The notes: generated by a model from the letters alone, not told the origin. Shown: positions 8,403 through 61,166, counted from the first letter of the stretch. The stretch is 64,000 nucleotides of DNA from an archaeon (GCA_028279705.1 JANQNF010000046.1:17019-81018), one strand, 5' to 3'. Program-made: numbers and translations.

Positions 8403-8649
8403 GAGTATGATTTGAGTTCGTGTTTAATAACATTACGATCTCGTTATATAGTCAATAAGCTAAACTAATATAGAAAGCGCTAGAACTACTACTACGCCTT
8501 TTACTTGAAACAAAAGCGATATCTTGCACCTCCTTTGAAACCTACCATTTATAAGTAGTTTTTGTCATTTTTTGTAAAAATAGCTACGTCAAAAGCGATA
8601 TCTATCAAACCTGTCTGGAAAATGGAAAACACTGAAAATTTGCGTATTT

Positions 8650-9888: not shown

Positions 9889-9963
9889 CTCCCTTGGCCG
9901 GGTCTTTATTGGCCCGGTCGAGTTCCCATTTTACGCAAATACGAATGATATCATCAATCTTCA

Positions 9964-10110
9964 CTAGATCCCCTCCCTCCATACACGGTCAATTATCCTT
10001 CTCATAGCTTCGCTACGTGAGGTGGCGCCTATGTTCGCTCTTACGTCATCCAGCTTCTTCTTGTCCATATCGGTTAACGCGAAAGTCGAGTTCTTCGTTA
10101 CTCTTGTCAT
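9964..10110 (-). CDS. small ribbon-helix-helix-like protein (48 aa, not in ORF track)
   Basis: Hand translation: MTRVTKNSTFALTDMDKKKLDDVRANIGATSRSEAMRRIIDRVWREGI; sits just upstream of the 412-aa gene. Confidence 0.3.
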   Translation of the reverse strand: MTRVTKNSTFALTDMDKKKLDDVRANIGATSRSEAMRRIIDRVWREGI

Positions 10111-10148
10111 GATTTTTATTCAAATCGAAAACTACATATTTCCTTTTT

Positions 10149-19828: not shown

Positions 19829-20380
19829 TATCTTTATTTTCAAGACTAGCTGAGAGGGTAAAGTACGGTGAATACTCAAAAACACCCGAATTCGCCATAT
19901 CAAGAAGCTACCGGAAATGGGACAATATGCTCAGAAACCTGAATGCACTTCCACAAGAAGCGCATTAACGGAATTTTACTTCCGATAACGCATGTTATAT
20001 TCAATCGAGAAAAGGCAAACCTTAAATTTGGTGAAAACCAATTATTGATTAATGTGTGTGAATTTACCAGTTTGGGCCGAACCGATAGTTTTATTCGCGG
20101 CTCCGTTGATAGTATTGGTTTTGTATATTGTCCTTACAAGAACTGGCACGGTTAAGCTGGAAGATAGGAAAAAATTGAAGATATTCAGTATAATATTTGC
20201 GATTATACTTACTTGGGTATCTTTCTCTTTTAGTTTCATGTGGCTTTGTTGATACTCCTGCCTTTTCTCGACTTCGTCGCTTCGCTCCGACCAAAGGGAA
20301 CATAACATACGCTAACAGGCTTTGGTTATTCCTGCTCTGCCCAAATTCCGATGTGTATCCCTCTGTCCATAAGCGGGCTT

Positions 20381-20920
20381 CTAAAGAGTACATTTCTTCA
20401 TGAAATCATTGTCCATCAACACGGACCGGTCGCATGTTTGCCTCAGGTGCCATGAATGGCCCGATTTGAAGTGTGCATTTTCAATGTGTTTGCCAAAACT
20501 CTGCGCGGCCTTCACTGCGGGCACAAAGTCTCCGTCGCCGCTTACGAGTATAGCTGTATCATAAGAATTACTTTGTGCCAGCATGACCATGTCCACTGCT
20601 ATGTGGATATCATCACCCTTGACCGCATAATGAGTTTTCCCATCCACCTTGCGCTTTTGCAGCCTTACTAATACCAGTTTGAAATTCGGTATGTTCCTCA
20701 GCCCGGAAAAGAACTTCTGCTGCTTCTTGTAGCTTTCCTTGTCGTGGCTCATGTCCAGCGGTGCGTTGTAATAATATGTCCTTATAAGTTTCCTGTCTTT
20801 TCCGCAGAGCTTTTGTGATATTTTTTCAAAATCGATTTTCATGTCACCTAGATCCTTTCTCATGCAGTGGTAGAAGTTGCTCCCGTCTATGAATATGCAA
20901 ACACGCTCTGTATTGGCCAT
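20381..20920 (-). CDS. NYN-domain (LabA-like) putative nuclease
   Basis: VCIFIDGSNF, DIHIAVDMV, VSGDGDFVPAV motifs; start placed at MANTERV. Confidence 0.7.
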   Translation of the reverse strand: MANTERVCIFIDGSNFYHCMRKDLGDMKIDFEKISQKLCGKDRKLIRTYYYNAPLDMSHDKESYKKQQKFFSGLRNIPNFKLVLVRLQKRKVDGKTHYAVKGDDIHIAVDMVMLAQSNSYDTAILVSGDGDFVPAVKAAQSFGKHIENAHFKSGHSWHLRQTCDRSVLMDNDFMKKCTL

Positions 20921-21071
20921 AATATGAATGTTTGATTCGAGAAATAAATATGAACCTGCCCTTACCGAAGTAATGGCAGGGAGTATATGATACATAGTAG
21001 TCATGTTTCATTTATAAATGTTCTGAAGCCCACTTCGTTCATCGGAACTTCTGTTAGCTGTTTAGTTATAT

Positions 21072-21494
21072 TCAATCAGATTTCGCCTTTCCAACTTTCC
21101 TAAGCATATCTATATTGGTTAATATTTCAACTTTCTCTTGTTCCTTGAAATGAGGGTCATGTGTCCATATACCCTCTGAGTCAGTTGCAAGGCAGGCGGC
21201 TATATATGGAATATCTTTTGGGTCTTTTATCGAATGTTTGATTTTTGCTATCAAATCAAGGTATTTTGTTTGTGGAATAATTGATATGTTCTCGAAAATT
21301 AGAAGCAATAAAACCTCGAATTCTTCATTTGTTAACTGTGCGGCCTTAGTAACCCTCTTTTCATGCTTTCTGATTTCAGATATTATATTATCTGGAGCGA
21401 AGAATTCGAATAACGGGTCAAATAATATTTCTCTTGTTGTTCCTTTCTTTATCATTGAAGCGAGAACTCTGTTTGCATCTATAACTATTCTCAT
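21072..21494 (-). CDS. vapC: PIN-domain toxin VapC
   Basis: IVIDAN N-terminal acidic motif; DIPYIAAC..IWTHDPHF. Confidence 0.8.
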   Translation of the reverse strand: MRIVIDANRVLASMIKKGTTREILFDPLFEFFAPDNIISEIRKHEKRVTKAAQLTNEEFEVLLLLIFENISIIPQTKYLDLIAKIKHSIKDPKDIPYIAACLATDSEGIWTHDPHFKEQEKVEILTNIDMLRKVGKAKSD

Positions 21495-21727
21495 TTAACC
21501 AGACCGTGACTTTTAGCTATCCCTTTGTTTATTTCTTTTCCTACTTCCAATGCGTCTTTCTCGCTCAACTTGCTCTTTGATAGTATATTTTCCATGAGTT
21601 CTAATTTTCTCGCCTGCTCCCACATAGCTTGTCTTGCAACTTCACTCCATTTGATCTCTTTATGTTTTTGCATCATTTCGTGCAAATCCTGTGGAACGGC
21701 AAGAGTCATATTAGTCATATTTACCAC
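21491..21727 (-). CDS. vapB: VapB-like antitoxin
   Basis: 78 aa, 4-nt overlap with vapC start. Confidence 0.55.
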   Translation of the reverse strand: MVNMTNMTLAVPQDLHEMMQKHKEIKWSEVARQAMWEQARKLELMENILSKSKLSEKDALEVGKEINKGIAKSHGLVK

Positions 21728-21796
21728 CTAAGTAATTTATGTATATTATTTATTTTTACTTATTTATATATTTAACGGCGAAATCTGACTCTTCGC

Positions 21797-21900
21797 CACT
21801 ACGTGGCTTGTCTTCCAGAGAATATAACATGCAATATCAGGCTTCCTGCTGGAAGTCTCAAATGTTGTGCATACACAACATTTCAGATATCGCTATAGTT
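21797..21900 (+). repeat. structured repeat copy 1 (two hairpins)
   Basis: GGCTTCCTGCTGGAAGTC hairpin, then AAATGTTGTG-cata-CACAACATTT hairpin, then ttcagatatcgctatagtt. Confidence 0.6.
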
Positions 21901-22399
21901 AGATGTAATTGAGAAAACTGCTGTGGGTCTGATAAGCCTTTCCGCAACACGGTGCACCAAAACCAAGTTCCTTTTTCATTTGTTCAGGACTCAGACTAAT
22001 AATATCAGAAACTGTGTAATCAATTTCTCTATCTTTCCAAGACTGTGCCAATAGAATCCTTGCTCTGTTTATTCCTGAAACACCACTATAATCATTGAGG
22101 TTCTTTTCACCATGAGAAATCGATTTTATTGCATTGGATAGCTCCCCATACGTCCTAATTTTATTGATATTGAGAACCTGCTTTTGCCCATTCCAATACT
22201 TTGGATTCCCATCTTTTTTGTATTCACCCGTCATGTTCACCCAATGTGTCTTTTTGCCTGTGTATACACTATGATTAAATTTTGCTTTCCTTCTTTTACT
22301 GGTTTTAGCTTTGTCGATTAGAAAATCCCAGTAAAGTTGGTTAAATGTGTCTGCTTCTCTTGCCTTCTTAAGACCTTTCATAACTCTACAATAAAGCAA
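21899..22399 (-). CDS. hypothetical protein flanked by repeat copies 1 and 2
   Basis: 166 aa, no motif recognised. Confidence 0.45.
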   Translation of the reverse strand: MLYCRVMKGLKKAREADTFNQLYWDFLIDKAKTSKRRKAKFNHSVYTGKKTHWVNMTGEYKKDGNPKYWNGQKQVLNINKIRTYGELSNAIKSISHGEKNLNDYSGVSGINRARILLAQSWKDREIDYTVSDIISLSPEQMKKELGFGAPCCGKAYQTHSSFLNYI

Positions 22400-22431
22400 A
22401 ATTTTAAAAAGGCAGTTTTCTCAACTTCCTC

Positions 22432-22536
22432 GACTACGTCTCGGACCCTCAGGGACATCTAACATGCAATATCAGGCTTCCAGCAGGAAGCCTCAAATAT
22501 CGTCCACAGATGATACTTCAGATATCGCCATAGTTG
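22432..22536 (+). repeat. structured repeat copy 2
   Basis: Same flanks as copy 1 (gactacgt...taacatgcaatatcaggcttcc...ctcaaat...ttcagatatcgccatagtt); hairpin 2 stem is AAATATCGTC/GATGATACTT with three compensatory pair changes versus copy 1. Confidence 0.6.
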
Positions 22537-22562
22537 TATCTAATTCGGCTGGCACATAATAA

Positions 22563-22835
22563 TTACTTCATTGTGTTGATAATTTTCTTTGCGTTTTCGC
22601 TAGTTAGGGGAATTGTGTCGACGACGCCATCGTTTAAATCTAATATCAAGTTTGTTTCCAGGTTTTTAATGGTCGGTGCTTTCGATGACACCACGCTCGC
22701 ATTTTTCGGCTTCAGGTAATCTGAGTTTGTATTCTCATTATTTAAATGATCAGCGAATATCATTCCACCATAAAATCCAAGACCGCCAACCACACCACTT
22801 GCTATATACTTAATATAATTACCAAACTTTGACAT
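22563..22835 (-). CDS. small membrane-anchored protein
   Basis: 90 aa, N-terminal TM (IASGVVGGLGFYGGMIFA). Confidence 0.35.
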   Translation of the reverse strand: MSKFGNYIKYIASGVVGGLGFYGGMIFADHLNNENTNSDYLKPKNASVVSSKAPTIKNLETNLILDLNDGVVDTIPLTSENAKKIINTMK

Positions 22836-22958
22836 ATTCTACAATAAGGTAGAGTTAACTTTTTAAACCTTCCTTCATACAGACGCCAGCCGAACTCCGG
22901 CACTTCCTACCCACCTGGCTCGTGAGTGCCTATACACGACATGAGATTATTAGGATTT

Positions 22959-23020
22959 GACTACGCACCTTACGCTGCCAAATCTCAAACTGTCGCAGAG
23001 CGACAGCTTCTAATAATCCT
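22959..23020 (+). repeat. degenerate repeat copy 3 (hairpin CTGTCGC-agag-GCGACAG)
   Basis: Shares gactacg, ctcaaa + perfect hairpin + cttctaataatcc with copies 1 and 2; lacks the first hairpin. Confidence 0.35.
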
Positions 23021-23111
23021 GAGTTATACGAAATTTCAAACCCCGCTCCAGAATTTAGATATTTTTATATAGACTCATTTTTAATTATTAGAGAAAGGTA
23101 AGAAAGGTATT

Positions 23112-23573
23112 ATGAAAATTAACTATAAAAAAGCGATAATTTTTGGAACCATTGTGATACTATTGCAAATGGTGTTTGGCAACCTGTTATACATAAATCC
23201 CATTGCAATGGAAATCAACAAGCAGTTCGAAGGCCACCCCTCAATAAAATCCTTTGATTTCATAGGGGGAATGGGTAATTGGCTTCTGCTGACACTTGTT
23301 TTTAGTATTTTTCTCATGGTTCTCTGGATCGTATTGTATACATTCCTGTACAAGGCTATTCCCGGGGAAGGTTGGAAAAAAGGGTTATTTTTTGGTCTTG
23401 CACTGTCCTTCATAAAGGCAGTCCCAGAAGCATTCAACCAATGGATGATCTTTGTTTATCCCAGTGAGCTGATTATATTACAACTTGTTAATACATTTCT
23501 AGGTTTAGCAGTTTTTGGAATATTGCTAGGATTTTTCTATAAAAAATTCAATGTGATCAATTATGAAAAATGA
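23112..23573 (+). CDS. 4-TM membrane protein
   Basis: 153 aa hydrophobic ORF; overlaps start of the next gene. Confidence 0.5.
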   Translation: MKINYKKAIIFGTIVILLQMVFGNLLYINPIAMEINKQFEGHPSIKSFDFIGGMGNWLLLTLVFSIFLMVLWIVLYTFLYKAIPGEGWKKGLFFGLALSFIKAVPEAFNQWMIFVYPSELIILQLVNTFLGLAVFGILLGFFYKKFNVINYEK

Positions 23574-24009
23574 AAATGAAGACATGATCGCCTATTGTGG
23601 CCTGTGCTGCTTGGACTGTCACGGCTTTCAACAAAAAATACCAGACCTTGCAAGGGACCTGAGAAAAGAGCTAAGAGCTTCAAAATACAGAAAATTCGCG
23701 GAATTCCTTGCAACTACTACATTTGGAAAGGGCTTTAAAGAGTACGACAAGTGTTACGAAGTTTTGGGGAATATGGTAAAGTTCAGGTGCCACAAAGGAT
23801 GCCGGAATGGGGGAGGAAACCCTTTCTGTAAAATCAGGAAATGCTGCCAAAAGAAGAAATATGAAGGTTGCTGGGAATGTGATATCTTTGAAGAATGCGA
23901 GAAACTTGCTTTTTTGGAACCAGTCCATGAAAAAGGGCATGTAAAAAACTTAAAAATAGTCAAAAATAAAGGGAAAGCCGAATTCTTAAAATGTAAAAGA
24001 CATTGGTAG
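23563..24009 (+). CDS. Cys-rich DUF3795-like protein
   Basis: YCGLCCLDCHGF, CHKGCRNGGGNPFCKIRKCC, CWECDIFEEC; paralogue of 16321..16734. Confidence 0.55.
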   Translation: MKNENEDMIAYCGLCCLDCHGFQQKIPDLARDLRKELRASKYRKFAEFLATTTFGKGFKEYDKCYEVLGNMVKFRCHKGCRNGGGNPFCKIRKCCQKKKYEGCWECDIFEECEKLAFLEPVHEKGHVKNLKIVKNKGKAEFLKCKRHW

Positions 24010-24088
24010 TGGCTAGTTCTCGGGAGCGACAGCGGAAGAATAACGGTTAAAAAACTATCTGCCTATACAATCCTTATAGGTGAATTGA

Positions 24089-24574
24089 ATGGGAGAACTG
24101 ATAATACCACAGGGGCTGGTTGGAAAGAATCCGGGTATCGAAAATGGAATCTATCAAGATTCATATGTCAATGAAATGAACGGGATTTATCCAATAAAAG
24201 AAATAGTAGGCACACCAAATGAACATGAATACAAAAGCATGTTCATACGTAAGTTGCGTTCACTATTCAATGAAGCGATTCCCAATGCTGAAGAATGTGC
24301 CGTTTTATTGCCAATTTATATTTCCAGTGCAAAAAATGGTTCATGGGTGCCAGGTAAACTTGAAACAGATGCCATAAAGTCTGCTACGGGTATGAATCCA
24401 GAGGAATATGTTGAATATCTCATTAGTGATAACAACAAACGCCCTTATCGTGGTACAACACAATTACATAACGCAACAAAAAGAGGACTACTGATCAATA
24501 CTGTTTACGAAGGAGATTTCTTTTCTATACTAACCGAGCAATTTGCCAAACATTTGCAATCAAACAAAACGTAG
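24089..24574 (+). CDS. hypothetical protein
   Basis: 161-aa ORF. Confidence 0.4.
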   Translation: MGELIIPQGLVGKNPGIENGIYQDSYVNEMNGIYPIKEIVGTPNEHEYKSMFIRKLRSLFNEAIPNAEECAVLLPIYISSAKNGSWVPGKLETDAIKSATGMNPEEYVEYLISDNNKRPYRGTTQLHNATKRGLLINTVYEGDFFSILTEQFAKHLQSNKT

Positions 24575-24724
24575 CCCTCCCCCGAAAATTGCATCTAACA
24601 TCTCGATTAAGAGAAGTTGATTTTTTGAGACATCCCACAAAAATTATTTTTTGTTCTTACTCATTACGATAGGCTTTCCTCAATATTCAAATTTCAGCAT
24701 TTTATAATTTACTTATTTAGAAAA

Positions 24725-25207
24725 CTATACAAGCATTGATATTTTCTTTGCAAATGCCTGGATGTTATTTTTTGCACTATCAAAAAGTCTTTCGCAATCA
24801 TCGTAGTTCACTTCATCGAACAACTTATCTTTTAAGATATAATCAAATCTATTTGGATCTGGAGACATTGTGTATGCATGTTTTGCTTTACTTAATTTAT
24901 CATGATAGCTAATTTGCGTCTTGCGGTTCATCCCCGATAGCCAAATTTCGTATTCAAATTTATTATGCGTAAAAGCGATAACAAACTTAAGGCCTTTTGA
25001 TTGCAGTTCATCATTAGTGAATTGGAAATAGGAATAATCCATGTTGTTTTCAACAATATTCCCTGTGAACTTATATTCAGATAAGTTACCAGCCAAATAA
25101 GTCCTAAAACCTCTAAAAAACTTAACAAATTCCTGGTAACCTTTTTGCAGGTTTGTAGACTGGAGAATTTTTTTATATTCGCTGATGTAATTCGAATTAA
25201 TTTTCAT
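24725..25207 (-). CDS. hypothetical protein
   Basis: 160-aa ORF. Confidence 0.4.
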   Translation of the reverse strand: MKINSNYISEYKKILQSTNLQKGYQEFVKFFRGFRTYLAGNLSEYKFTGNIVENNMDYSYFQFTNDELQSKGLKFVIAFTHNKFEYEIWLSGMNRKTQISYHDKLSKAKHAYTMSPDPNRFDYILKDKLFDEVNYDDCERLFDSAKNNIQAFAKKISMLV

Positions 25208-25396
25208 AATATTATCTTTAAGATTGAAGTGTATTTAAAATTTGTTTTCTGAAAGCATATCTTCTTTACTTCAAGAAAATTTTTTGAATCGCGTATAACT
25301 CTGATAATCTCATGTTATTGTGAGCTGCTTACTGGGCGGCGAAGTTTTCGGATGTAGGTGTTTTGTTTAAAAAAATTATTATCATAAAATTAACTT

Positions 25397-25622
25397 TATG
25401 AGCAAATCCGCATTTTTCACTAAAAGAAGATATTGAGGAAATTGCTGCAAAATTGCCGGGAGAATACAAATCAAAGTTGTATAAAATTGCAAGTAAAATA
25501 TTCATGGGTGCATATATGACAGGTGACCTGATTGGAACCAGGGGTGACAAAGGAGATAGAACGTTTTTTTCCAGAAAAATGGGAGAAATATCGGAACAAT
25601 GTGAAAATTCTGACGAGTTTTA
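25397..25622 (+). pseudogene. frameshifted small gene remnant
   Basis: MSKSAFFTKRRY-stop, then the +1 frame continues EDIEEIAAKLPGEYKSKLYKIASKIFMGAYMTGDLIGTRGDKGDRTFFSRKMGEISEQCENSDEF. Confidence 0.25.
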
Positions 25623-25694
25623 ATAAGTACGCATCCGAAAATTTACGATAACATCAGGGTTAACCGATTCTACCAGTTATCTTCTAATTTGTGC

Positions 25695-25760
25695 GAACGG
25701 AGTGAGTCGGTTATTGCATGTTAGATGAGTCCTTTAGGACCAAGCGAAGTGTAGAGTTCG
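25695..25760 (-). repeat. repeat family copy A (shares catctaacatgcaata core with copies 1 and 2, reverse orientation)
   Basis: Reverse complement of 25703-25718 is ctcatctaacatgcaata; small hairpin GTCC-ttta-GGAC. Confidence 0.4.
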
Positions 25761-25778
25761 GGGCCGTTGTTGTGACAT

Positions 25779-26030
25779 CTAAACAGGATCATAATTTTTG
25801 ATCGGTGTGGATATTTGAGTCAAAGAAACTATGTCACCTGTTTTTATGTTGTATAAGAATGGTCCTGACCTAGACTGATTATAACCAATTCCAAGATGTT
25901 CTAAATTGTTAGTTGTATCCACTTTTACCGAATAGTCATCATGACCATTCTTTATCAGAGGACCTACAACAAATTCCGAACCACCGGAAATGTTAACCAT
26001 TACCCTTTTATCAACCATACCATCGTTCAT
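25779..26030 (-). CDS. small hypothetical protein flanked by repeat copies A and B
   Basis: 83-aa ORF. Confidence 0.3.
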   Translation of the reverse strand: MNDGMVDKRVMVNISGGSEFVVGPLIKNGHDDYSVKVDTTNNLEHLGIGYNQSRSGPFLYNIKTGDIVSLTQISTPIKNYDPV

Positions 26031-26154
26031 ATTATCACTATTTAATAGTTAAATAACTTTTATAAACTTATCGTCGACCTGAATTTCTTATAACTAAAAA
26101 GCTAACAGATGTTACCGCTATCTGCGGTAATTTGGGCGGAACAGGAATAAACAA

Positions 26155-26215
26155 AGTCTGTTAGCGCATGTTACACATCCGTTAGGTCGGTGTGAGCGAA
26201 GAGGGCGGAGAAGTA
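26155..26215 (-). repeat. repeat family copy B (degenerate)
   Basis: gcatgttacacatccgttagg...agcgaagagggcgg aligns with copy A (gcatgtta, tccNttagg, agcgaag). Confidence 0.3.
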
Positions 26216-26257
26216 ATGCACCAAAAGGTATAAAAAACTACTAAACTTCTACATCTC

Positions 26258-26653
26258 ATGGGAGATTGTCCATACTGTAAAGAAGAGTATCAAAGCTCTG
26301 AACGGAACATATTAGAAAACGAATCGTGGATTGCTAATTTTGACGGACATCCAGTAAACCCCGGACACATGAAAATAATTTCAAAAAGACACGTTGTTTC
26401 AATCAGTGAACTCAATAACGAAGAATTGATTTCAATGAGGGAAATGATGAAAAAAGTCGAGTCACTAGGGGAAGAACAATTTAAAACAGATGAATATAAT
26501 TGGGGTTTCAACAAAGGAAAGAATGCCGGTCAAACAAAATTCCACCTACACATACATTATATACCAAGATATGAGGGAGACGTGGAAGACCCGATTGGCG
26601 GGGTAAGAAACATTATCCCCGAAAAAGGAAATTACCTCAAATTAAAAAAGTAA
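26258..26653 (+). CDS. HIT-family (histidine triad) nucleotide hydrolase
   Basis: N-terminal CPYC, histidine triad HLHIHYIP. Confidence 0.8.
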   Translation: MGDCPYCKEEYQSSERNILENESWIANFDGHPVNPGHMKIISKRHVVSISELNNEELISMREMMKKVESLGEEQFKTDEYNWGFNKGKNAGQTKFHLHIHYIPRYEGDVEDPIGGVRNIIPEKGNYLKLKK

Positions 26654-26819
26654 TATTTGGTACATTGTTGCGTATAACATCGGTTTATTAGAAGTTGCCT
26701 CTGTGCGGCAATTTGAGATTCAGCAGCTGAAAAATGCGTAGCTGAATCCTAATAATATTATGCTATATTCAATAATTTGAGGGGCTGAAGGTAAAAGGGA
26801 GCAATTTTATAAAAATAAT

Positions 26820-27620
26820 TTATCCTAACCACTTATTTTCAATTTCTTTAAGTTTACCACTCCTTTTCATTTCTCTTAGGATTTTATTAATCTCATCCAT
26901 CAAAGCATTATTGCCAAGTCTTGTTGCAATACCATAAAATTCTTGTGTTAACGGCTCTCCAACAAGTTTCAAATCGTCAGGGTGTGCTTTAACAGCTCCA
27001 ACTCCAGCTACATAATCTCCGACAACAGCTTCTACTGTATCATTCAAAAGACCTGCTATCGCTTCCTCTCCGTTGACAAAAAGATATAATTGATCTTTTT
27101 CAACATATTCTAATGCAGCTTTTTCACAAGTTGTTCCACCTATAGTTCCTACCATCCTATCTCTCAAATCTTCAGGGAATTCTATCTGATCATGATTCTT
27201 TTTTACAACTATTACCTGACCCCCGATGAAATATGGAACACTGAATAATATTTCTTCAGACCTTTCAGGTGTGATGGTCACAGAAGAGATTACAACATCA
27301 ACACTATTCGATTTGATTTTTGTAAAAAGTTCTTTCCAGTCACTTTGTTTTATTTCTACTTCCACTCCCAGCCCATTACTTACCTCGTTTATTATTTCCA
27401 TATCTACTCCCATGAAATTTCCTGATTCATCGGTAAATGTCATCGGGTAATAATCACCAGTTGTTCCAACTATCAGCTTTCCCCTTTCCTGTACATCCAG
27501 AAGCGATGTGTCAGTTATTTCCACTACCTGATCATCCTGCACGGTCTGTGCACATCCGGAAATTAAGAGTAACAGTAAGAAAACCGATAAAATCGCGAAT
27601 CCATTTTTCATGAATTTCAC
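26820..27620 (-). CDS. family-3 solute-binding lipoprotein (amino-acid ABC type)
   Basis: Lipobox LLLLISGCAQ; ends KWLG; paralogue of 61176..62024. Confidence 0.75.
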   Translation of the reverse strand: MKFMKNGFAILSVFLLLLLISGCAQTVQDDQVVEITDTSLLDVQERGKLIVGTTGDYYPMTFTDESGNFMGVDMEIINEVSNGLGVEVEIKQSDWKELFTKIKSNSVDVVISSVTITPERSEEILFSVPYFIGGQVIVVKKNHDQIEFPEDLRDRMVGTIGGTTCEKAALEYVEKDQLYLFVNGEEAIAGLLNDTVEAVVGDYVAGVGAVKAHPDDLKLVGEPLTQEFYGIATRLGNNALMDEINKILREMKRSGKLKEIENKWLG

Positions 27621-32807: not shown

Positions 32808-32905
32808 GACGTAATAATGTAGCTAAAATTAAAGTATGTTACCCCAAGAATAAAACGGGACTATTCTTTCAGATGCGACAGACAACTTGTCACACACAGT
32901 CGGCG

Positions 32906-32982
32906 TGGGTAAGAATTACTGTTTTCATAACTTATCTTAGTTGTTTTCAAATAAATATGAAATAATTCCAGGTGTGACAGTA
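32906..32982. repeat. about 77-bp duplicate of the DHH gene promoter plus its first 10 codons (30345..30420), now upstream of the PQQ gene
   Basis: cagtcggcgtgggtaagaattactgttttcataacttatcttagttgttttcaaataaatatgaaata versus cagtcggcgtgagtgagaataactgttttcataacttatcttagtcgttttcaaataaatatgaaata. Confidence 0.7.
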
Positions 32983-32996
32983 TTTAATCAGAGTCT

Positions 32997-33242
32997 TTAC
33001 TTGTATACTTTCTTGCGGTGTTCAAAACAGTTGATTACTATACAGTTTTTCTCAAGTCTGTAAACAACCCTGAAAGGCTTTATAACAAGCCTTCTATGTC
33101 CCTTTAGTTCGTGTCTCAATGGCCTGCCGGATTCTGGTATTTCTTTCAGTTTGCTTATAGCTTTGATTATCTTTTCCCGGAGAAAGTGGTCCTTGATTCT
33201 TTTATAGTCCTTTCTGAACTGCTCGGAAAATATTATTTCCAT
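32997..33242 (-). CDS. RelE/ParE-family toxin
   Basis: 81 aa, basic, typical RelE length; directly follows the antitoxin gene. Confidence 0.65.
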   Translation of the reverse strand: MEIIFSEQFRKDYKRIKDHFLREKIIKAISKLKEIPESGRPLRHELKGHRRLVIKPFRVVYRLEKNCIVINCFEHRKKVYK

Positions 33243-33243
33243 T

Positions 33244-33522
33244 CTATTCTCCCATCAGAAGGTCATCTATTTCCTTGAAAGACATGCTCGTATCGGCCTT
33301 GACTACTCTTCCCTTCTTGATGTCTTCCTCTCCTTTTTCAATCCTGTTCATTAAGTCCATCTCCTCTATGAGCATTTTGTCTTTTATTGGCTTCAGCATG
33401 ATATTGCCATTCTCATTGAAGATGAGGAACTTTGTCTGAGGTTTCAATCTTGAGTCTCTTCTTATCTCTACCGGGATTACCACCTGGCCGTTTGTAGACA
33501 TCTTTGTTATGGACACTTCCAT
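33244..33522 (-). CDS. AbrB/MazE-type antitoxin
   Basis: MSTNGQVVIPVEIRR swapped-hairpin motif. Confidence 0.6.
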   Translation of the reverse strand: MEVSITKMSTNGQVVIPVEIRRDSRLKPQTKFLIFNENGNIMLKPIKDKMLIEEMDLMNRIEKGEEDIKKGRVVKADTSMSFKEIDDLLMGE

Positions 33523-52779: not shown

Positions 52780-55700
52780 TCAGTCCTTTGAGAGATTGAC
52801 CTTCCGCGACACTTCAAAATCCTTTATGATGCATACGGTGGAGTCCGGTGCAATCTCTGCGACCTTTTTCATCTCTTCGGGCGAGAGTATCTTTCCTTCT
52901 ATCTTCAGTACGTCCTTTACCCCAAGCCTGCTGCTTGGAAGGTTCGTCACCATGCTGACTATCGAATTGGGATAGCCCTTCCTGACTCCAAGCACTTCAA
53001 GCACTTCGTATGCCTTGTTCGACGGCAGGTGGTCTATCACCGTGCCGTTCTCGATCTTTGCGATCTTGTATTCCCTTTCCATTCCAGATAACCTCCAGTA
53101 TTCTTTCAATTCTCTTGCCTCCATTTTCGGCTTTTTGAGAAGAGCATCAGCGAATGCCTCTATGAGGGACATCTGCGTGAATATGGGAACCCCAAGAGTC
53201 GCAAGTTCCCTTCTTATTTCACTGTCGTCACCGGCATCTATCAGAACGTCTGGTTTGGTACCGTCATACTCTGTCATGACATTGAAACCCGCCTTCTTGA
53301 GTTTTTCCGCAACGCCTCTTCCCACATTGTTGAGAAGCACGTTGCCGCCGATCCTAAATCCGGACTCTGTCGCGATCATGGATTTGATGAGGGCCTCTTC
53401 GAAAGTTGTTCCCATGCATGCGATTTCTCCAGTGGAGACCATCTCGACCCCGAGTTTTGGGTCTATTCCCTTGAACCTTGCCCATGAGAACATCGGAAAC
53501 TTTACTGAATAGGTCTTGAGGTGGTTTGTCACAAGTCCCCTCGGGAGAGGCTCGCCCGTCATGCACCTCGTCGCGGTCTTTATCAGGTTTATCCCAGCGC
53601 TCTTGCTCGTGTAAGGCATGGACCTCGATGCCCTGAGGTTGCATTCGATGACGTATATCCTCTCACCCTTGACCATGTACTGGATGTTGAACGGGCCCTT
53701 TATTCCAAGTTCCCTCGATATCTTTTCGGTGTAATCATAAATCCTCTCCTTGACACCCTCGCTTATCGATACGGGAGGAATCACCATGCTTGCATCACCG
53801 CTATGGACGCCAGCTGGTTCTATGTGCTCCATCACTGCCCCTATGAAAGCGTTCCTGCCGTCACCGACGCCGTCGACTTCCACTTCCTTTGCGCCCGTTA
53901 TGAACTTCGACACGACGACCGGGTAATCCCTTGAAAGGCTTACTGCGCCTGACAGGTATTCCTTGAGTTCGCTCTCGTTCCTGGCAACCTTCATTGCAGA
54001 CCCCGAAAGCACGTATGACGGCCTTATGATGACAGGATAGCCGATCTTTTCGACAAAGCTTTTGACACCTTTCATTGTCGTGAATGAATCCCATTCGGGC
54101 TGTGCGATCGAAAGCCTGTCAAGCATTGACGAGAACTTGTGCCTGTCTTCTGCCGAGTCTATGTCCCTTCCTGTGGTTCCAAAAAGCGTCACACCCCTCT
54201 TGCTCAGCGAATATGCAAGGTTATTTGAAGTCTGGCCGCCGACGGATACTATCGCACCAAGCGGCTTTTCCTTGTCTATTATGTCCATCATGCGCTCAAG
54301 GCTCAACTCCTCGAAATATAACTTGTCGCTCATGTCGTAGTCAGTGGAGACCGTTTCAGGGTTGCAGTTTGCAACAACCGTCGTATAGCCCTTCTTCTTC
54401 AGTTCCCACACGCAGTTCATCGTGCACCAGTCGAACTCTACACTTGATCCTATCCTTATAGGTCCTGCGCCTATTACGAGCATCTCTCCCTTTTCAGAGA
54501 AGTCTATGTCGTCAAACGAGCCGTTGTATGTCATGTACAGGTAGTTGGTCTTCGCAGGATACTCTGCTGCAAGGGTGTCTATCTGCTTTACAACCGGAAG
54601 TATACCGTAATGCTTTCGTAGCGTCCTTACCCTCTCCGGTGCGACACCCATGCATTCTGCTATCTTGTTGTCAGAGAACCCGATCTTTTTGGCTTCAACG
54701 AGTTCATCCTTGAAACCATCGTCTGAAAAGCGGACTTTATTGAGCTTTTCGTGCATGTCCGTGATGTTTTTTATCTTGTAGAGGAACCATCTGTCTATGC
54801 CGCTTATGTCATGTATCTCATCGACCGTCATGCCCATCCTGAACGCGTCTGCGACGGCAAACAGCCTCTGGTCAGTCGGTGACTTGAGTTCTTCCTTGAT
54901 CTTCTCAGTATCTTCGAATACGGGACTGTCTTCTGTGACCTCCCTTCCTATCTCAAGCATGCGTATGGCCTTCTGTATCACTTCCTCGAAGTTCCTGCCG
55001 ATTGCCATGACCTCGCCGATAGCCTTCATCTGCGAGCCGAGATTCGGATCCACTCCCGGGAATTTTCGCGCCTCCCACCGCGGCACCTTGACTACGATGT
55101 AATCGAGAGCCGGTTCAAAGCACGTTGACGTCACCTGCGTTATCTTGTTCGACACCTGCGGCAGCGTATATCCGACGGAAAGCTTTGCCGCAACGTATGC
55201 GAGCGGATAGCCGGTCGCTTTTGATGCGAGCGCCGAGGACCTCGAAAGCCTTGCGTTCACCTCGATTATGCAGTGTTCAAGCTTGTTTGGATTGAGCGCA
55301 AACTGTATGTTGCATTCACCAACGATCCCAAGCTCACGTATGACGTTTATCGAGACCTTTCTGAGATAATGATATTCCGTGTCAGACAGCGTCTGGCTCG
55401 GCGCGACGACTATGCTGTCGCCCGTGTGGACGCCCATGGGGTCGAAATTCTCCATGCAGCACACCGTTATGCAGTTGTCGTCCTTGTCCCTCATAACCTC
55501 GTATTCGACCTCTTTCCAGTGGTGTAGGTACTTCTCGATGAGCACCTGGTTTATCATGGAGTGTTCGAGACCCTTTTTCACGACCTGTTCAAGTTCATTT
55601 TCATTCCATGCAATTCCTGACCCAAGTCCGCCAAGTATGTATGCTGGCCTTACCATGATGGGGTAGCCGATTTCTGTAGCAGCTTTTCTTGACTCGTCTA

Positions 55701-56154
55701 TTGAATTGCACGATATGCTCTGCGCGACGTCTCCGCCGGCCTTCTCGACAGCTTCCTTGAACCTCTCCCTGTCTTCAGACCTCATTATGGATTCGACAGG
55801 AGTGCCGAGAACTCTCACCCCGTACTTCCTGAGAACGCCTTCCTCGTAAAGCTTAACGCCCATGTTGAGCGCGGTCTGGCCGCCAAAACCAAGGAGTATG
55901 CCGTCAGGTCTTTCCTTCTTTATGATCTTTTCCATGAACTCAAGCGTTATCGGCTCCATGTACACCTTGTCCGCAAGATCGTGCGAGGTCTGTATGGTTG
56001 CAACGTTCGGATTGACGAGTACTGTCTCGATACCCTCTTCTTTTAGCGCCTTCAGTGCCTGGGAACCGCTGTAGTCGAACTCTGCCGCCTGTCCTATCCT
56101 TATGCCGCCTGACCCTATTATCAGCACTTTCCGGACGGACTTGTCTGCGCTCAT
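52780..56154 (-). CDS. carB: carbamoyl-phosphate synthase large subunit with an extra C-terminal PyrI-like allosteric domain
   Basis: Two ATP-grasp halves and an MGS-like domain. The last ~100 aa (KIAKIENGTVIDHLPSNKAYEVLEVLG...NLPSSRLGVKDVLKIEG...STVCIIKDFEV) match the N-terminal allosteric domain of aspartate carbamoyltransferase regulatory chain PyrI; no zinc domain. Confidence 0.9.
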   Translation of the reverse strand: MSADKSVRKVLIIGSGGIRIGQAAEFDYSGSQALKALKEEGIETVLVNPNVATIQTSHDLADKVYMEPITLEFMEKIIKKERPDGILLGFGGQTALNMGVKLYEEGVLRKYGVRVLGTPVESIMRSEDRERFKEAVEKAGGDVAQSISCNSIDESRKAATEIGYPIMVRPAYILGGLGSGIAWNENELEQVVKKGLEHSMINQVLIEKYLHHWKEVEYEVMRDKDDNCITVCCMENFDPMGVHTGDSIVVAPSQTLSDTEYHYLRKVSINVIRELGIVGECNIQFALNPNKLEHCIIEVNARLSRSSALASKATGYPLAYVAAKLSVGYTLPQVSNKITQVTSTCFEPALDYIVVKVPRWEARKFPGVDPNLGSQMKAIGEVMAIGRNFEEVIQKAIRMLEIGREVTEDSPVFEDTEKIKEELKSPTDQRLFAVADAFRMGMTVDEIHDISGIDRWFLYKIKNITDMHEKLNKVRFSDDGFKDELVEAKKIGFSDNKIAECMGVAPERVRTLRKHYGILPVVKQIDTLAAEYPAKTNYLYMTYNGSFDDIDFSEKGEMLVIGAGPIRIGSSVEFDWCTMNCVWELKKKGYTTVVANCNPETVSTDYDMSDKLYFEELSLERMMDIIDKEKPLGAIVSVGGQTSNNLAYSLSKRGVTLFGTTGRDIDSAEDRHKFSSMLDRLSIAQPEWDSFTTMKGVKSFVEKIGYPVIIRPSYVLSGSAMKVARNESELKEYLSGAVSLSRDYPVVVSKFITGAKEVEVDGVGDGRNAFIGAVMEHIEPAGVHSGDASMVIPPVSISEGVKERIYDYTEKISRELGIKGPFNIQYMVKGERIYVIECNLRASRSMPYTSKSAGINLIKTATRCMTGEPLPRGLVTNHLKTYSVKFPMFSWARFKGIDPKLGVEMVSTGEIACMGTTFEEALIKSMIATESGFRIGGNVLLNNVGRGVAEKLKKAGFNVMTEYDGTKPDVLIDAGDDSEIRRELATLGVPIFTQMSLIEAFADALLKKPKMEARELKEYWRLSGMEREYKIAKIENGTVIDHLPSNKAYEVLEVLGVRKGYPNSIVSMVTNLPSSRLGVKDVLKIEGKILSPEEMKKVAEIAPDSTVCIIKDFEVSRKVNLSKD

Positions 56155-57393: not shown

Positions 57394-57687
57394 ATGAACA
57401 TGAGGGAATGGCTGTCGAAATGGCTAGAGCCGGAACGAAGGATATGGCTCGTCTTTCTGGCAATTTTCCTCGTATCCCAGGCGTTCAACATCGAGGCACG
57501 TTTCCCGGACTACAGCGGATGGTCAGGGTTCGGCTTCCCGTTCAACTATTTCCAGTGGCACGGTGAAATAGAGTATTCGTATTTCAACGTCATAAACCTC
57601 GTAATTGACATTGTCATCATGTTCATCGTCGCAAGGATACTGCTCTTTGGGTACATCCAGTTCACCAAGTACAAGATAATGAAGTGA
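57394..57687 (+). CDS. small membrane protein
   Basis: 97 aa, 2 TM. Confidence 0.35.
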   Translation: MNMREWLSKWLEPERRIWLVFLAIFLVSQAFNIEARFPDYSGWSGFGFPFNYFQWHGEIEYSYFNVINLVIDIVIMFIVARILLFGYIQFTKYKIMK

Positions 57688-57691
57688 TTGT

Positions 57692-58024
57692 ATGGAAAAG
57701 GGACTTCACCATTACCACCAGAGAAAAAGACTCCACGAAAAGAAGGAGAAGTATCCTCATCCTGACAAATGGAAGAGGATAATGGACAAGCTGATATACG
57801 TAGTCGGAATAATCGGTCCACTCACTTCGATCCCTCAGATGATAAACATATGGGTTTATGGCATGATCGAGGGAGTGTCCGTCATAACATGGGCTGCACT
57901 TGCGGTTGTGGCATTCTTCTGGGTCATTTACGGTGTCATGCACAGGGAAAGGCCCATAATAGTCGCGCACGGTCTCTGGGTGATTTTCGATATCCTCATA
58001 GTTCTGGGTGTCCTTCTCGTATGA
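57692..58024 (+). CDS. small membrane protein
   Basis: 110 aa, 3 TM. Confidence 0.35.
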   Translation: MEKGLHHYHQRKRLHEKKEKYPHPDKWKRIMDKLIYVVGIIGPLTSIPQMINIWVYGMIEGVSVITWAALAVVAFFWVIYGVMHRERPIIVAHGLWVIFDILIVLGVLLV

Positions 58025-58025: not shown

Positions 58026-59405
58026 CTAGAAGTAGATGTCCCGTTCGCCTTTCTCTATCCGTGAAAGGCGCTCTTCTGTCTCAACTCTCACTTTCTCTTT
58101 GTCTATATTTTCCAGGTATTTTGATATTATCTTCTCACCGAGCTTCTTGACCTGCGGTGACGCGTAATCTTCCAGATACTCCTTGAAAGTAAGAAGCGCG
58201 TTCGGCCTGCACAGATGGTGTATGTTACCGGGTTTTGCAAGATCCATGAACGCTTTTCCTGTCCTTTCTTCCCTGTAGCATGCCGTGCAGAAGCTTGGAA
58301 GCAGCCCCTGCTTCAATATGCTCAGCATGACGTCGTCAAGGGACCTGTGGTCGGAAAGGTCAAACTGCGAAAGCCCGCTGTCCTTTGTGTACCCGCCAGG
58401 AGACGTCCTTGAAGCAGCAGATGTCTGCGATATCCCAACCTTGAATGCCTTGGCCCTGAGATCGGGACTTTCCCTGGTTGAAATTATCATGCCGGTGTAT
58501 GGCACAGCCATTCTGAGTATCGCGATTATCTTCAGCAGTTCGTAGTCTGAAATGTTTACAAGCGGCTTGTTCCATTCAACCGTTTCCGAAGGCTGCCACC
58601 TCGGCACCGAGAACGTGTGCGGACCGACCCCGTACGTACTGTCGAGATACTGCGCGTGCGAAACAAGTGCCATCACCTCGAACCTGTAATCGTATAAGCC
58701 AAAGAGTACGCCAAGACCCACGTCGTCAATGCCCGCCTCAAAAGCCCTGTCATGTGCGAAAAGCTGCCTTTCATAATCAGCCTTTGGTCCGCAGTGAAGC
58801 TTCTCGTAGGTTTCCCTGTGGTAAGTCTCCTGGAAGAGCTGGTATGTGCCTATTCCCACTTCCTTGAGCTTCTTGTAATCTTCCACGCTGGTTGCGGCCA
58901 CGTTGACGTTGACGCGCCTTATCTCACCCTTTCTGATCTTGGTATCATAAATCGTCTTGATGGAATCCACTATGTAGTCTATGTCATTGTTCACCGGGTC
59001 CTCACCGAACTCAACAAGGAGCCTCTTGTGCCCCATCTTCTCAAGCGTTTTCACCTGGCTTCTTATCTCGTCCTGGGTAAGCTTCTTTCTAGGTGCATTG
59101 TTTCTCTTGTGAAAGCCGCAGTATTCGCAGTCGTTGACACAGTGGCTGGAAACGTAAAGCGGTGCAAAAAACACCATCCTCTCCCCGTATATCTTCTCCT
59201 TTATCTTTGCCGCAGTCTCAAGCATCCTGTCAACGAAGTTTGGGTGGTCGGCATTTAGAAGGTATGCTACCTCCTCAAGAGAAAGTCCCTTCATCCTGAG
59301 CGCCTTGTTCAGTATCTCGTGTATCTTCCCAGGCGGCCTTGATTTTGTCCTCTCAAGCGCCTTCTCTATCTCCATCACGTTTACGATTTCCTCTGCTTTT
59401 GGCAT
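58026..59405 (-). CDS. hydG: HydG-like radical SAM tyrosine lyase (ThiH/HydG family with C-terminal auxiliary-cluster motif)
   Basis: LYVSSHCVNDCEYCGF cluster motif; C-terminal FCTACYR followed 22 residues later by Cys (CX2CX22C), a HydG feature absent from ThiH. Confidence 0.8.
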   Translation of the reverse strand: MPKAEEIVNVMEIEKALERTKSRPPGKIHEILNKALRMKGLSLEEVAYLLNADHPNFVDRMLETAAKIKEKIYGERMVFFAPLYVSSHCVNDCEYCGFHKRNNAPRKKLTQDEIRSQVKTLEKMGHKRLLVEFGEDPVNNDIDYIVDSIKTIYDTKIRKGEIRRVNVNVAATSVEDYKKLKEVGIGTYQLFQETYHRETYEKLHCGPKADYERQLFAHDRAFEAGIDDVGLGVLFGLYDYRFEVMALVSHAQYLDSTYGVGPHTFSVPRWQPSETVEWNKPLVNISDYELLKIIAILRMAVPYTGMIISTRESPDLRAKAFKVGISQTSAASRTSPGGYTKDSGLSQFDLSDHRSLDDVMLSILKQGLLPSFCTACYREERTGKAFMDLAKPGNIHHLCRPNALLTFKEYLEDYASPQVKKLGEKIISKYLENIDKEKVRVETEERLSRIEKGERDIYF

Positions 59406-59409
59406 ATTA

Positions 59410-60696
59410 TCACAATCCTAAATCCGTCGGTGCCCTTCCCAGTGAATATAACAATTCGATAGTATCATTTATATTCTCTTCGGTCTTTTTGTCGTTTCCT
59501 GCCTTACCAGGGTATATCCTGTAAAGGTCCCTGTATTTTGAAGGAGTTATGTTTATCATAAGCGAATTCCCCCCGGACATAAGACCCTTCTTCTTTGCAC
59601 CCTTATCGACAGTCTCAAGCGCAGTCGTTACAAGTATCTTTGACTTCCTGTCCATGAACCGGGCAAGCGCCGTTGCCTTCAGGACCCTGTCCACGTCAGG
59701 CTTACTCTCACTTTGAAGCGGCGTCCCGTCAGTTGGTATGAACGGCCCAAAGGAATACATGTCCGCGCCAAGTTCTTTTGTCAGCAGTATGTTGTTGACA
59801 AGGTCCTCGTTTGTCTCACCTGGAAGTCCCGTAAGAAAGCCCGTCGCAACGACGTATCCCATGTCGTTTAAATCGCGTATCAGCTGCACCCTGTCCTCGA
59901 GTTTCGTTCCAGGTCTCAGTTTCTCAAACAGATCTTTATTTGAAGTCTCAAACCTGAGGAGCGCAGCCCTCGCGCCGGCATCATAAAGCCTTTTGTAAGT
60001 TTCCTTTGGCCTCATTCCTATGCTGACGAATATGAGAACGTCAAGCCTTCTCACTTCCCTTACAATCCTTTCAAGCTTTTCGTCATCATACCACGGGTCC
60101 TCGCCCGACTGCAACACAAGCGCCTTGAATCCCAGTTCCTTTGAAGCGTGCCTGGCAGCATCTATGATCTCTTCTGGTGTCATCCTGTATCTTTTGACGC
60201 TGCTGCCCTTTCTTATTCCGCAGTACATGCAGTCCTGCGTGCAGTAATTGGAGAACTCAAGTATCCCGTGGACGCAGCATGCGTTGTCGTGGTCCTTCTG
60301 CCTTACGTTGTTTGCAGTCTCCATTATCAGCTTGATGTCTTCCCCGTCGTCCGTCCCTAACAGTTCGAGCGCGTCCTTTTTGCCAAGTTCCTGGTTCCTG
60401 TTCACCTTCTGGAGTATTTGCAGTATGTTACCTGAAGCGTCGGCATTTTCGTGTATTTTGGACGTAGTGCGGTCTAACTCCTTCAGCTCGAAGAACTTCT
60501 CCTTCCACGCTTCAAGGATTTCGACAGCTTCCTTTTCCGGTATCTTGCTTATCAGCACGCCGCCCTGTGCGTACACGTATTCGCCTTTCCGGACATCGGC
60601 AAAGTCGCAGAGGACGTTCCTCTTTTCGCCGAAGTAGTCCACGACAGCGACGCCGTCCTTGACTTCAGCGACCCTTCCAGGAATAGCGTAGCACAT
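59410..60696 (-). CDS. hydE: fusion: HypC/HupF-like N-terminal domain + HydE-like radical SAM enzyme
   Basis: N-terminus MCYAIPGRVAEV...GEYVYAQGGVLISKIPEKEAVEILEAW (HypC signature MC-x-AIPG and OB-fold tail); core NYCTQDCMYCG, KRYRMTPEEI, VLQSGEDP, GLPGET, GPFIP, YRDLYRIYPGK (HydE-type). Confidence 0.8.
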   Translation of the reverse strand: MCYAIPGRVAEVKDGVAVVDYFGEKRNVLCDFADVRKGEYVYAQGGVLISKIPEKEAVEILEAWKEKFFELKELDRTTSKIHENADASGNILQILQKVNRNQELGKKDALELLGTDDGEDIKLIMETANNVRQKDHDNACCVHGILEFSNYCTQDCMYCGIRKGSSVKRYRMTPEEIIDAARHASKELGFKALVLQSGEDPWYDDEKLERIVREVRRLDVLIFVSIGMRPKETYKRLYDAGARAALLRFETSNKDLFEKLRPGTKLEDRVQLIRDLNDMGYVVATGFLTGLPGETNEDLVNNILLTKELGADMYSFGPFIPTDGTPLQSESKPDVDRVLKATALARFMDRKSKILVTTALETVDKGAKKKGLMSGGNSLMINITPSKYRDLYRIYPGKAGNDKKTEENINDTIELLYSLGRAPTDLGL

Positions 60697-60782
60697 AGTA
60701 ACAGAATGTCACGGCTATTTAAAAGATGTCACAATCAGGGACTCGTTAACAAATAAAAAATGAAATAACAAGGATTAACCGC

Positions 60783-61166
60783 ATGAAAGGTTTTTACAGG
60801 AAATTGCTCCCGATCTTTGGCGCACTGGTAGTCAGCTCCTGCATTAAAAGCGGCGAAGAATCTGTAGGGAAATTGTTTAATGTAAAGTACCCGTCCGGGG
60901 AAAGCGACACCATCTTCAGTTCATACGATGGCACTGTCAAGCCGCTCGTTTCAGAGGACGGCGTTCGATTCTTAAAGGAAAGCCATGGTATGTACAGGAT
61001 CGATGGCAGGATAATCCACTACACGTCCATGGCTACAGTCTCAGGTGACGGGTTCTATAACGATGTCAGTCTGTATGAATGCGACGGTAACGGGAATGTG
61101 ATTTCCAAGATAGAGAACGAAAATATCCGTGAAGCCCTAATAGAAAAAATAAATTCCATCCAGTAA
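60783..61166 (+). CDS. small lipoprotein
   Basis: Signal/lipobox ALVVSSCIK. Confidence 0.4.
   Translation: MKGFYRKLLPIFGALVVSSCIKSGEESVGKLFNVKYPSGESDTIFSSYDGTVKPLVSEDGVRFLKESHGMYRIDGRIIHYTSMATVSGDGFYNDVSLYECDGNGNVISKIENENIREALIEKINSIQ

Follow-up and report, generated by a model that had tools for sequence, protein, structure and literature searches.

The question raised by this locus was which cofactor is built by a gene pair that combines parts of the two hydrogenase maturation systems. The locus lies in a 64,000-nt archaeal stretch (GCA_028279705.1 JANQNF010000046.1:17019-81018; "the window" means this whole stretch), the minus strand of which was found to contain an open reading frame (ORF) for a HypC::HydE fusion (59410..60696) followed by an ORF for HydG (58026..59405). 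In the textbook view the maturation of [FeFe] and [NiFe] hydrogenases represents two separate inventions, with HydEFG drawing on tyrosine and HypA-F on carbamoyl phosphate. As read from gene context and conserved residues, the fusion and HydG probably supply [NiFe] hydrogenases with their Fe-CO/CN unit in place of HypCDEF, by a route that uses radical S-adenosylmethionine (SAM) enzymes and starts from tyrosine. A hybrid Fe-CO/CN route possibly bypassing HypE/HypF had been suggested by the initial annotation, and this suggestion gained support from relatives of the window, in which the module was found in [NiFe] operons, in the slot otherwise held by HypFCDE and without HypD/E/F, HydF or HydA.

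The fusion protein (428 amino acids plus stop; Pfam, NCBIfam, phmmer against the PDB and AlphaFold2 (AF2)) was found to contain a HypC-like oligonucleotide/oligosaccharide-binding (OB) fold at residues 1-66 (60499..60696; this and all features of the fusion and HydG given below are on the minus strand), which was assigned from PF01455, the 2z1c match and the alignment with E. coli HypC. Pfam HupF_HypC (PF01455) matched residues 1-64 with 55.4 bits against a gathering threshold (GA) of 28.5, and T. kodakarensis HypC (2z1c) matched residues 1-66 with 52.8 bits and E 2.9e-13 in the phmmer search of the PDB. The N-terminal Met-Cys was found in the motif MCYAIPG (nt 60676-60696); Cys2 was invariant and the HypC domain was always N-terminal in the fusion family. 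This was followed by the presence of a conserved helical linker with the N-terminal HydE helices at residues 67-135 (60292..60498; family alignment and AF2), around the start of which W64, F68, L71, K72 and D75 were invariant in the family alignment. The AF2 helices were H54-78, H89-99, H106-114 and H118-136, with a block-mean predicted local distance difference test (pLDDT) score of 79-96 over residues 51-140. The whole model, built on 23 family members, was confident along the entire chain (pLDDT 92.3, predicted template modelling score (pTM) 0.91).

The remainder of the fusion was occupied by a HydE radical-SAM barrel at residues 136-428 (59413..60291), which was assigned from the PDB match, the fold superposition and the motifs. 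Pfam Radical_SAM matched residues 147-301, and the NCBIfam HydE model TIGR03956 gave 260.3 bits, narrowly above its equivalog cutoff of 254.6, with the competing models PylB (146 bits), BioB (105 bits) and HmdB (84 bits) all far under the HydE score. T. maritima HydE (TmHydE) matched residues 92-423 with 255 bits in phmmer, and the AF2 barrel superposed on TmHydE (3cix), complex-B-bound forms included, with a template modelling (TM) score of 0.94, a root mean square deviation of 1.3 A and 40% identity. The CX3CX2C motif of the SAM cluster was found at residues 152-159 (nt 60220-60243). The TmHydE residues R159, M224, T268/T269, M291, K309, V105 and L157 corresponded to R248, M313, T357/T358, M380, K398, V194 and L246 of the window protein. 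The SAM-cluster cysteines and the equivalents of R159, M224, T268/T269, M291, V105 and L157 were kept in 73 of 73 distinct fusions, with K or R at the position of K309. In HydE, M224, M291, K309, V105 and L157 have been tied to binding of the synthon and its Fe(I) products (PMC11826987). The auxiliary-cluster cysteines of HydE were absent from the fusion. A family-specific C-C-V-H-G motif was found in the alignments at residues 140-144 (60265..60279), where barrel strand beta1 begins, with C141 and H143 invariant in the fusions and V-H-I-R-A as the TmHydE counterpart; C141 and H143 might conceivably serve as a metal or acceptor site.

The HydG protein (459 amino acids; 58026..59405) was identified from TIGR03955, the 4wcx match and its motifs. 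The TIGR03955 score was 585 bits against a cutoff of 312, whereas the ThiH model gave 295 bits, under its cutoff of 380, and the T. italicus HydG structure 4wcx was aligned over the full length with 554 bits. The protein contained the SAM-cluster motif CVNDCEYC (CX3CX2C; residues 89-96, nt 59118-59141), followed by the presence of GVGPHT (residues 259-264, nt 58614-58631), the His of which serves in HydG as ligand to the dangler iron, and of the auxiliary-cluster motif CTACYR-x22-C (CX2CX22C; residues 373-399, nt 58209-58289). The window HydG thus appears orthodox; it is a predicted tyrosine lyase and should make the [Fe(Cys)(CO)2(CN)] synthon. The initial annotation had read the two ORFs as a HypC N-terminal domain joined to a HydE rather than a BioB or PylB core, and as a HydG with CX2CX22C rather than a ThiH, and these identities agreed with the scores, the motifs and the predicted structure given above. 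PylB, BioB, ThiH, CofH, Mqn and HmdB were excluded as identities of either radical-SAM protein by the model scores and the fold.

The same fusion was found far beyond the window, in archaea and bacteria. A total of 283 relatives were found among GTDB species genomes, and the taxonomy of the best 80 of these 283 comprised DPANN archaeal hosts (Aenigmatarchaeota, Nanoarchaeota/Woesearchaeota, Micrarchaeota and Altiarchaeota) and bacterial hosts (Omnitrophota, Patescibacteria, Margulisiibacteriota, Planctomycetota, Elusimicrobiota and metagenome-assembled genomes (MAGs) labelled Gammaproteobacteria). In a protein search, more than 120 full-length fused homologues with 57-78% identity were present among the matches listed, under database names that varied between HydE, biotin synthase, radical SAM protein and HypC-family chaperone. 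Fused and unfused proteins were separated by a sharp score gap, with at least 280 bits for the fused proteins and at most 257 bits for unfused HydE; the latter were 330-370 amino acids long and shared 33-46% identity, and their matches did not begin before about residue 93. Among the top 150 representatives of a library clustered at 50% identity, 19 had the HypC N-terminus, and the family comprised about 20 clusters. In the 84 family loci, examined with flanks of at most 10 kb per side and 1.25 Mb in total, the HypC domain was found at the N-terminus of the HydE gene in every locus; 14 fusions that had been flagged as lacking HypC were artefacts of the motif pattern or the start codon. HydG adjoined the fusion in 45 of these 84 loci (33 of 34 in the DPANN loci), and HypC::HydE::HydG triple fusions were found in P0124 (906 amino acids) and P0135 (881 amino acids).

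A few variants of this arrangement were also observed. P0157 (803 amino acids) was a HydE::HydG fusion without HypC, and the unfused HydE relatives P0166, P0175 and P0178 contained a different N-terminal extension of about 100 amino acids. In loci without HydG within 10 kb (L023, L026, L028, L030-L033, L043, L046, L061, L062, L072 and others) the fusion was located in or near [NiFe] operons, and a frequent immediate neighbour was a DsbD_2-family membrane protein (9 loci) or rubrerythrin (7 loci). The closed Aenigmatarchaeota chromosome CP070804.1 (L045) was found to contain, at 10001-10942, a homologue with 72% identity which matched query residues 1-315 only, with no HydG within 10 kb and a [NiFe] large subunit 9.1 kb away; this copy may be decaying or may reflect a sequencing frameshift.

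The gene neighbourhood pointed to [NiFe] hydrogenases. When the ORFs of the 84 loci were clustered and the recurrent clusters named by Pfam, the [NiFe] large subunit was found as a recurrent cluster (28-29 loci) and was located within 10 kb of the fusion in 29 of the 84 loci. The small subunit, the Fer4_22 beta subunit, the NAD-binding gamma subunit and a HycI-type protease were each found in about 18 loci, followed by HypA, HypB and the Mbh/Mrp membrane subunits in 6-7 loci each. Among the 51 loci for which 13.3 kb of sequence or more was available, 28 contained at least one [NiFe]-related gene, which gave a binomial p of about 2e-23 against a 5% background, itself a generous assumption. The genes typically formed one co-oriented operon, for example with the order beta-gamma-small-large-HycI-(DsbD_2)-HypC::HydE(-HydG or rubrerythrin) or with the order Mbh/Mrp...Fer4-HycI-HypA-HypB-HydG-HypC::HydE. 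On the archaeal contig L170 the order on one strand was HypA, fusion, HydG, ORF, beta, gamma, small and large, and the fusion was 65% identical to that of the window. In the DPANN loci the distance to the hydrogenase was 1.3-3.8 kb in 6 of 7 cases, the remaining one being L045. By NCBIfam, the four-subunit enzymes were nearest to sulfhydrogenases (group 3b-like), and the Mrp-linked large subunits fell with NuoD-like group 4 enzymes. The large subunits in the fusion loci contained the canonical RxCGxCxxxH and DPCxxCxx(H/R) motifs and C-terminal tails.

A further candidate for the protease was found in the DPANN loci. The ORF family c12 (about 125-127 amino acids, with FGNP..DSLA ... HDFDLG motifs) adjoined the module in L004, L011, L016 and L052 and was present within the same locus in L009, L020, L056, L074 and L170. 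Its Pfam match was weak (E about 1e-3), and the c12 profile recovered bona fide bacterial HycI; c12 is a predicted minimal, highly divergent HycI-type [NiFe] endopeptidase, and such proteases are easily overlooked in annotation. In the archaeon DeMMO3_27 (L009), two [NiFe] gene sets (7430-8710 and 20580-21869) were found to flank a single HypC::HydE-HydG pair, and one maturation module may serve more than one enzyme there.

Several components of the two canonical pathways were missing around the module. No match to HypD, HypE or HypF was found in the 84 loci by phmmer and tblastn with E. coli HypD/E/F seeds from locus L086, and strict and loose scans of the 1.25 Mb of flanks found none of the HydA H-cluster, HydF CxH...HCxxC or HypD motifs; five HypD genes were recovered in the control set as a positive control of the HypD motif scan. 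No standalone HypC was found in the 84 loci, and HypD/E/F were never located beside HypA, HypB or HycI there. In a reverse test, 80 metagenome loci were selected by their hydrogenase genes, with an alignment of the [NiFe] large subunits from the fusion loci as the probe. HycI was followed by HypF-HypC-HypD-HypE in L094, L123, L128 and L167 and by HypC::HydE with or without HydG in L089, L090, L141 and L143, and Hyp C/D/E/F genes were found elsewhere beside the operon in L093, L111, L120, L142 and L161. None of the 80 loci contained both the fusion and HypFCDE; an apparent co-occurrence in L128 was a lipoyl synthase match of 48 bits. This slot pattern is the one expected for non-orthologous displacement in situ.

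The replacement of HypCDEF by the module can be outlined as a series of steps. In the first, HydG would cleave tyrosine and, at its C-terminal auxiliary cluster, assemble the [Fe(Cys)(CO)2(CN)] synthon; this is the established chemistry of HydG and is assumed here because of the near-complete conservation. In the second, the HydE barrel would take up the synthon and remove the cysteine by SAM radical chemistry, as is established for HydE, leaving a mononuclear Fe(CO)x(CN) species bound by the conserved Met pair; this is assumed for the fusion because the active-cavity residues were conserved. The iron fragment would then be passed to Cys2 of the tethered HypC domain rather than as a 2Fe dimer to HydF, possibly with the help of Cys141 and His143; an always N-terminal HypC domain fits the need of HypC for a free N-terminal cysteine. 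Finally, the HypC domain would dock on the [NiFe] large-subunit precursor and insert the iron unit, a step proposed because of the operon partners in relatives, after which HypA and HypB would add Ni and the HycI-type protease would cut the C-terminal tail. Capture and delivery by Cys2 would make HypD, HypE, HypF and HydF unnecessary. The second CN of Fe(CN)2(CO) could, speculatively, come from surplus CN- released from the second tyrosine of HydG. The stronger form of this proposal, in which the fusion and HydG are a self-sufficient, carbamoyl-phosphate-independent replacement of HypCDEF, with both CO and CN drawn from tyrosine in these DPANN archaea and small-genome or uncultured bacteria, and with the iron unit both assembled on and delivered by the HypC domain of the fusion itself, has about an even chance of being correct.

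Several observations weigh against the replacement of HypCDEF. The support as a whole consists of gene context and residue conservation, and comes from relatives rather than from the window; hydrogenase, HypA/B and protease genes were absent from the window, from 10 kb to its left and from L006 and L169, its closest relatives. A hydrogenase link was lacking in about half of the loci with good flanks. The searches covered loci, not whole genomes, and HypD/E/F or HydF/HydA could sit elsewhere in the genomes. Several bacterial lineages, namely MAGs labelled Gammaproteobacteria, Margulisiibacteriota and Mcinerneyibacterium, had no HydG within 10 kb of the fusion. The TIGR00074 (HypC) score of the fusion, 43.8, was below the cutoff of 48, and the position of His51 of E. 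coli HypC was occupied by an invariant Gln in the fusions (YAQGG, nt 60559-60573). In standalone HypC, His51 helps to bind Fe(CN)2CO within the complex with HypD. The product of HydG is Fe(CO)2(CN), whereas Fe(CO)(CN)2 is needed at [NiFe] sites. Both methionines proposed for HydE dimerisation were conserved, which fits a 2Fe product equally well.

It is rather unlikely that the module instead assists the Hyp pathway as an anaerobic CO source, for example by supplying CO or a pre-loaded Fe-CO unit to HypD/E/F encoded elsewhere. Outside organisms with HypX, no settled source of the CO used in [NiFe] maturation is known, which leaves a role for such a source, and the ligand stoichiometry of the HydG product and the survey of loci rather than whole genomes are both consistent with it. 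However, the fusion and HypC/D/E/F were mutually exclusive in one operon slot, and HypD/E/F were never next to HypA, HypB or HycI in the fusion loci; the very small genomes of many hosts and the lack of a His51 equivalent in the fused HypC also speak against a Hyp pathway being assisted. In a paper that covers HypX, the mechanism is described as having "remained elusive" (PMC6802093).

Maturation of the [FeFe] H-cluster, either in the ordinary way with hydF and hydA located elsewhere or independently of HydF with the HypC domain carrying a 2Fe precursor, is likewise unlikely. As maturases, HydG and HydE define [FeFe] systems, and both scored above their equivalog cutoffs; all HydE residues were kept, including the M224/M291 pair proposed for dimerisation, and active [FeFe] hydrogenases are encoded by DPANN archaea with an unexplained maturation route (PMC11216029). 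However, the HydA and HydF motifs were absent from the 1.25 Mb around the 84 loci, and the recurring operon partners were [NiFe] subunits, HycI, HypA and HypB. In the survey by Greening et al., only 8 of the 130 archaeal genomes that encode [FeFe] enzymes contained HydE/F/G, and most such genomes lack HydEFG (PMC11216029), so that the module does not follow the distribution of these enzymes in archaea. The absence of HydF and of an [FeFe] hydrogenase noted for the window by the initial annotation was extended here to 10 kb to its left and to the 84 loci.

A different organometallic enzyme had also been offered as the client. The module would then build a cofactor (Fe-CO/CN, another organometallic type or one with sulfur) for an enzyme other than a hydrogenase, and its adjacency to hydrogenases would reflect shared regulation; this is very unlikely, and such a client was judged less likely than a [NiFe] hydrogenase. 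It is favoured by the absence of a hydrogenase near the window and its closest relatives and by the loci without a hydrogenase link, but no other gene family was found to recur with the module across phyla in the 84 loci, and the module was placed in tight same-strand operons between HycI/HypA/HypB and the [NiFe] genes. A joining of hypC and hydE by misassembly or frameshift had nothing in its favour and was refuted, and the single frame read at 59410..60696 held, by the same fused ORF in 84 independent loci, more than 120 listed proteins and about 20 clusters, with a conserved linker and a confident single-chain AF2 model.

The proposed [NiFe] maturation module was compared with the known systems. 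Ligand synthesis for [NiFe] enzymes has been described as relying on machinery different from that for [FeFe] enzymes (PMC6802093). As in the HydE-HydG-HydF system, the window HydG keeps all cluster motifs and the HydE domain has the TmHydE fold with the named cavity residues. HydE and HydG were adjacent or fused, which fits direct transfer of the synthon from HydG to HydE, as reported for the canonical pair in work cited in PMC11826987. Unlike that system, no HydF scaffold or HydA target was found in the 84 loci and the operon partners were [NiFe] genes; unlike TmHydE and unfused HydE, the fusion contained an N-terminal HypC domain and the CVHG motif; it also lacked the auxiliary-cluster cysteines. 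With the HypC-HypD-HypE-HypF system the module shares the HypC-type OB-fold with its essential N-terminal Cys, the operon position by HycI, HypA, HypB and the structural genes, and the presumed client, the large-subunit precursor. It differs in having no HypD scaffold and no HypE/HypF chemistry from carbamoyl phosphate to cyanide, the ligands instead coming, on the present proposal, from tyrosine via radical SAM chemistry, and in a HypC that is covalently tethered to an enzyme and has Gln in place of His51. Like HypX, which makes CO aerobically from N10-formyl-tetrahydrofolate, the module would be an accessory route giving a diatomic ligand to the [NiFe] site, next to or in place of the core pathway, but the enzyme family and substrate are unrelated, and HypX supplements HypCDEF whereas the module appears to displace it. 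Like HcgA/HmdB of the iron-guanylylpyridinol (FeGP) cofactor, the fusion contains a HydE/BioB-like radical-SAM enzyme for an Fe-carbonyl cofactor of an archaeal hydrogenase, but it scored 84 bits on the HmdB model against a cutoff of 321 and no hmd or hcg genes were present. The module thus belonged neither to canonical HydEFG, as no HydF or HydA was found in the window or the 84 loci, nor to canonical Hyp, as HypD/E/F, a His51 equivalent and a standalone HypC were all absent. HypA, HypB and HycI were found in related loci and HypD/E/F never, and none of these was present in the window. The parts belong to the known families HydG, HydE and HypC; the architecture and context match neither canonical system. 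Literature searches returned no description of a HypC::HydE fusion or of HydG/HydE serving [NiFe] enzymes, and none of the papers retrieved dealt with Mcinerneyibacterium.

If the replacement of HypCDEF is correct, the module would represent the first crossover of the [FeFe] and [NiFe] maturation machineries and would indicate that the two types of system can recombine. It would provide a concrete tyrosine-based source of CO and CN for [NiFe] enzymes, would explain the CO source in these anaerobes and might yield a non-standard ligand set. For genome-reduced DPANN, candidate phyla radiation (CPR) and Omnitrophota organisms, the maturation of [NiFe] hydrogenases would then cost two genes rather than four, which would explain how they could maintain these enzymes, and heterologous production of [NiFe] hydrogenases could make use of a compact cassette of two genes. 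The current names ("[FeFe] hydrogenase maturase HydE", "biotin synthase" and "HypC family chaperone") would mislead metabolic reconstructions.

In the window, the sequence from the fusion stop to the HydG start reads TGA-TAAT-ATG, which gives a 4-nt spacer, TAAT, at 59406..59409 (minus strand), and we infer that the two genes are co-transcribed. A candidate archaeal TATA box, TTTTAAATA, was read from the sequence at 60716..60724 (minus strand), with its centre some 24 nt ahead of the ATG of the fusion. The host is archaeal and DPANN-type; the archaeal markers CarS (CDP-archaeol synthase), Rpb7, Orc1/Cdc6 and RNA polymerase Rpb6 were present, and the best matches were from uncultured DPANN and Aenigmatarchaeota MAGs with 72-78% identity. 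In six frames of the window, as in the adjoining 10 kb on the left, no hydA, hydF, hyp or [NiFe] genes were found (on the right the Logan contig ends where the window does), and the target hydrogenase of the organism must be encoded outside the window. The flanking ORFs (127 amino acids, 60783..61166; 110 and 97 amino acids, 57394..58024) were considered as HycI-like or HypA-like small proteins and rejected, as they were not those of the other DPANN loci.

The initial annotation had described the operon as directly abutting carAB. The carA and carB genes were indeed found downstream, at about 730 nt, but beyond two small opposite-strand ORFs, and the local order CNNM – fusion – HydG – carA – carB was common to the relatives L006 and L169 and absent from the other family loci. 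Because only these two relatives share the adjacency and no HypF is present, it is most simply explained as lineage synteny and not as a family trait. A functional link, with carbamoyl phosphate as the cyanide source, was dropped for the same reasons, there being no HypF to use carbamoyl phosphate. In the CarB of the window (52780-56154, minus strand; 1124 amino acids), the last 100 amino acids matched PyrI (PF01948, 95 bits), an allosteric domain that binds nucleotides, with CarB of matching length in L006 (1124 amino acids) and L169 (1123 amino acids); this CarB::PyrI fusion could put carbamoyl-phosphate synthase under pyrimidine-nucleotide control.

Elsewhere in the window, a third radical-SAM protein (14735-16324, plus strand; 529 amino acids) was found to contain an HMPTM-type N-terminal zinc ribbon and was unrelated to the HydE/HydG pair, with weak cross-matches of 33-37 bits. 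Low-GC islands were found at 1-11900 and 18860-27000, with a GC content of 0.34-0.39 against about 0.48 elsewhere. They contained two tyrosine integrases (10686-11903 and 18860-19828), a 1075-amino-acid KAP-family nucleoside triphosphatase (2179-5406), NYN and DUF7000 proteins as well as numerous ORFs that lacked a Pfam match, and are probably integrated mobile elements. A ParE toxin and a MazE-type antitoxin were found at about 32900-33500 (L002 3547-4072), beside a dCache/HAMP sensor and two periplasmic-binding-protein genes.

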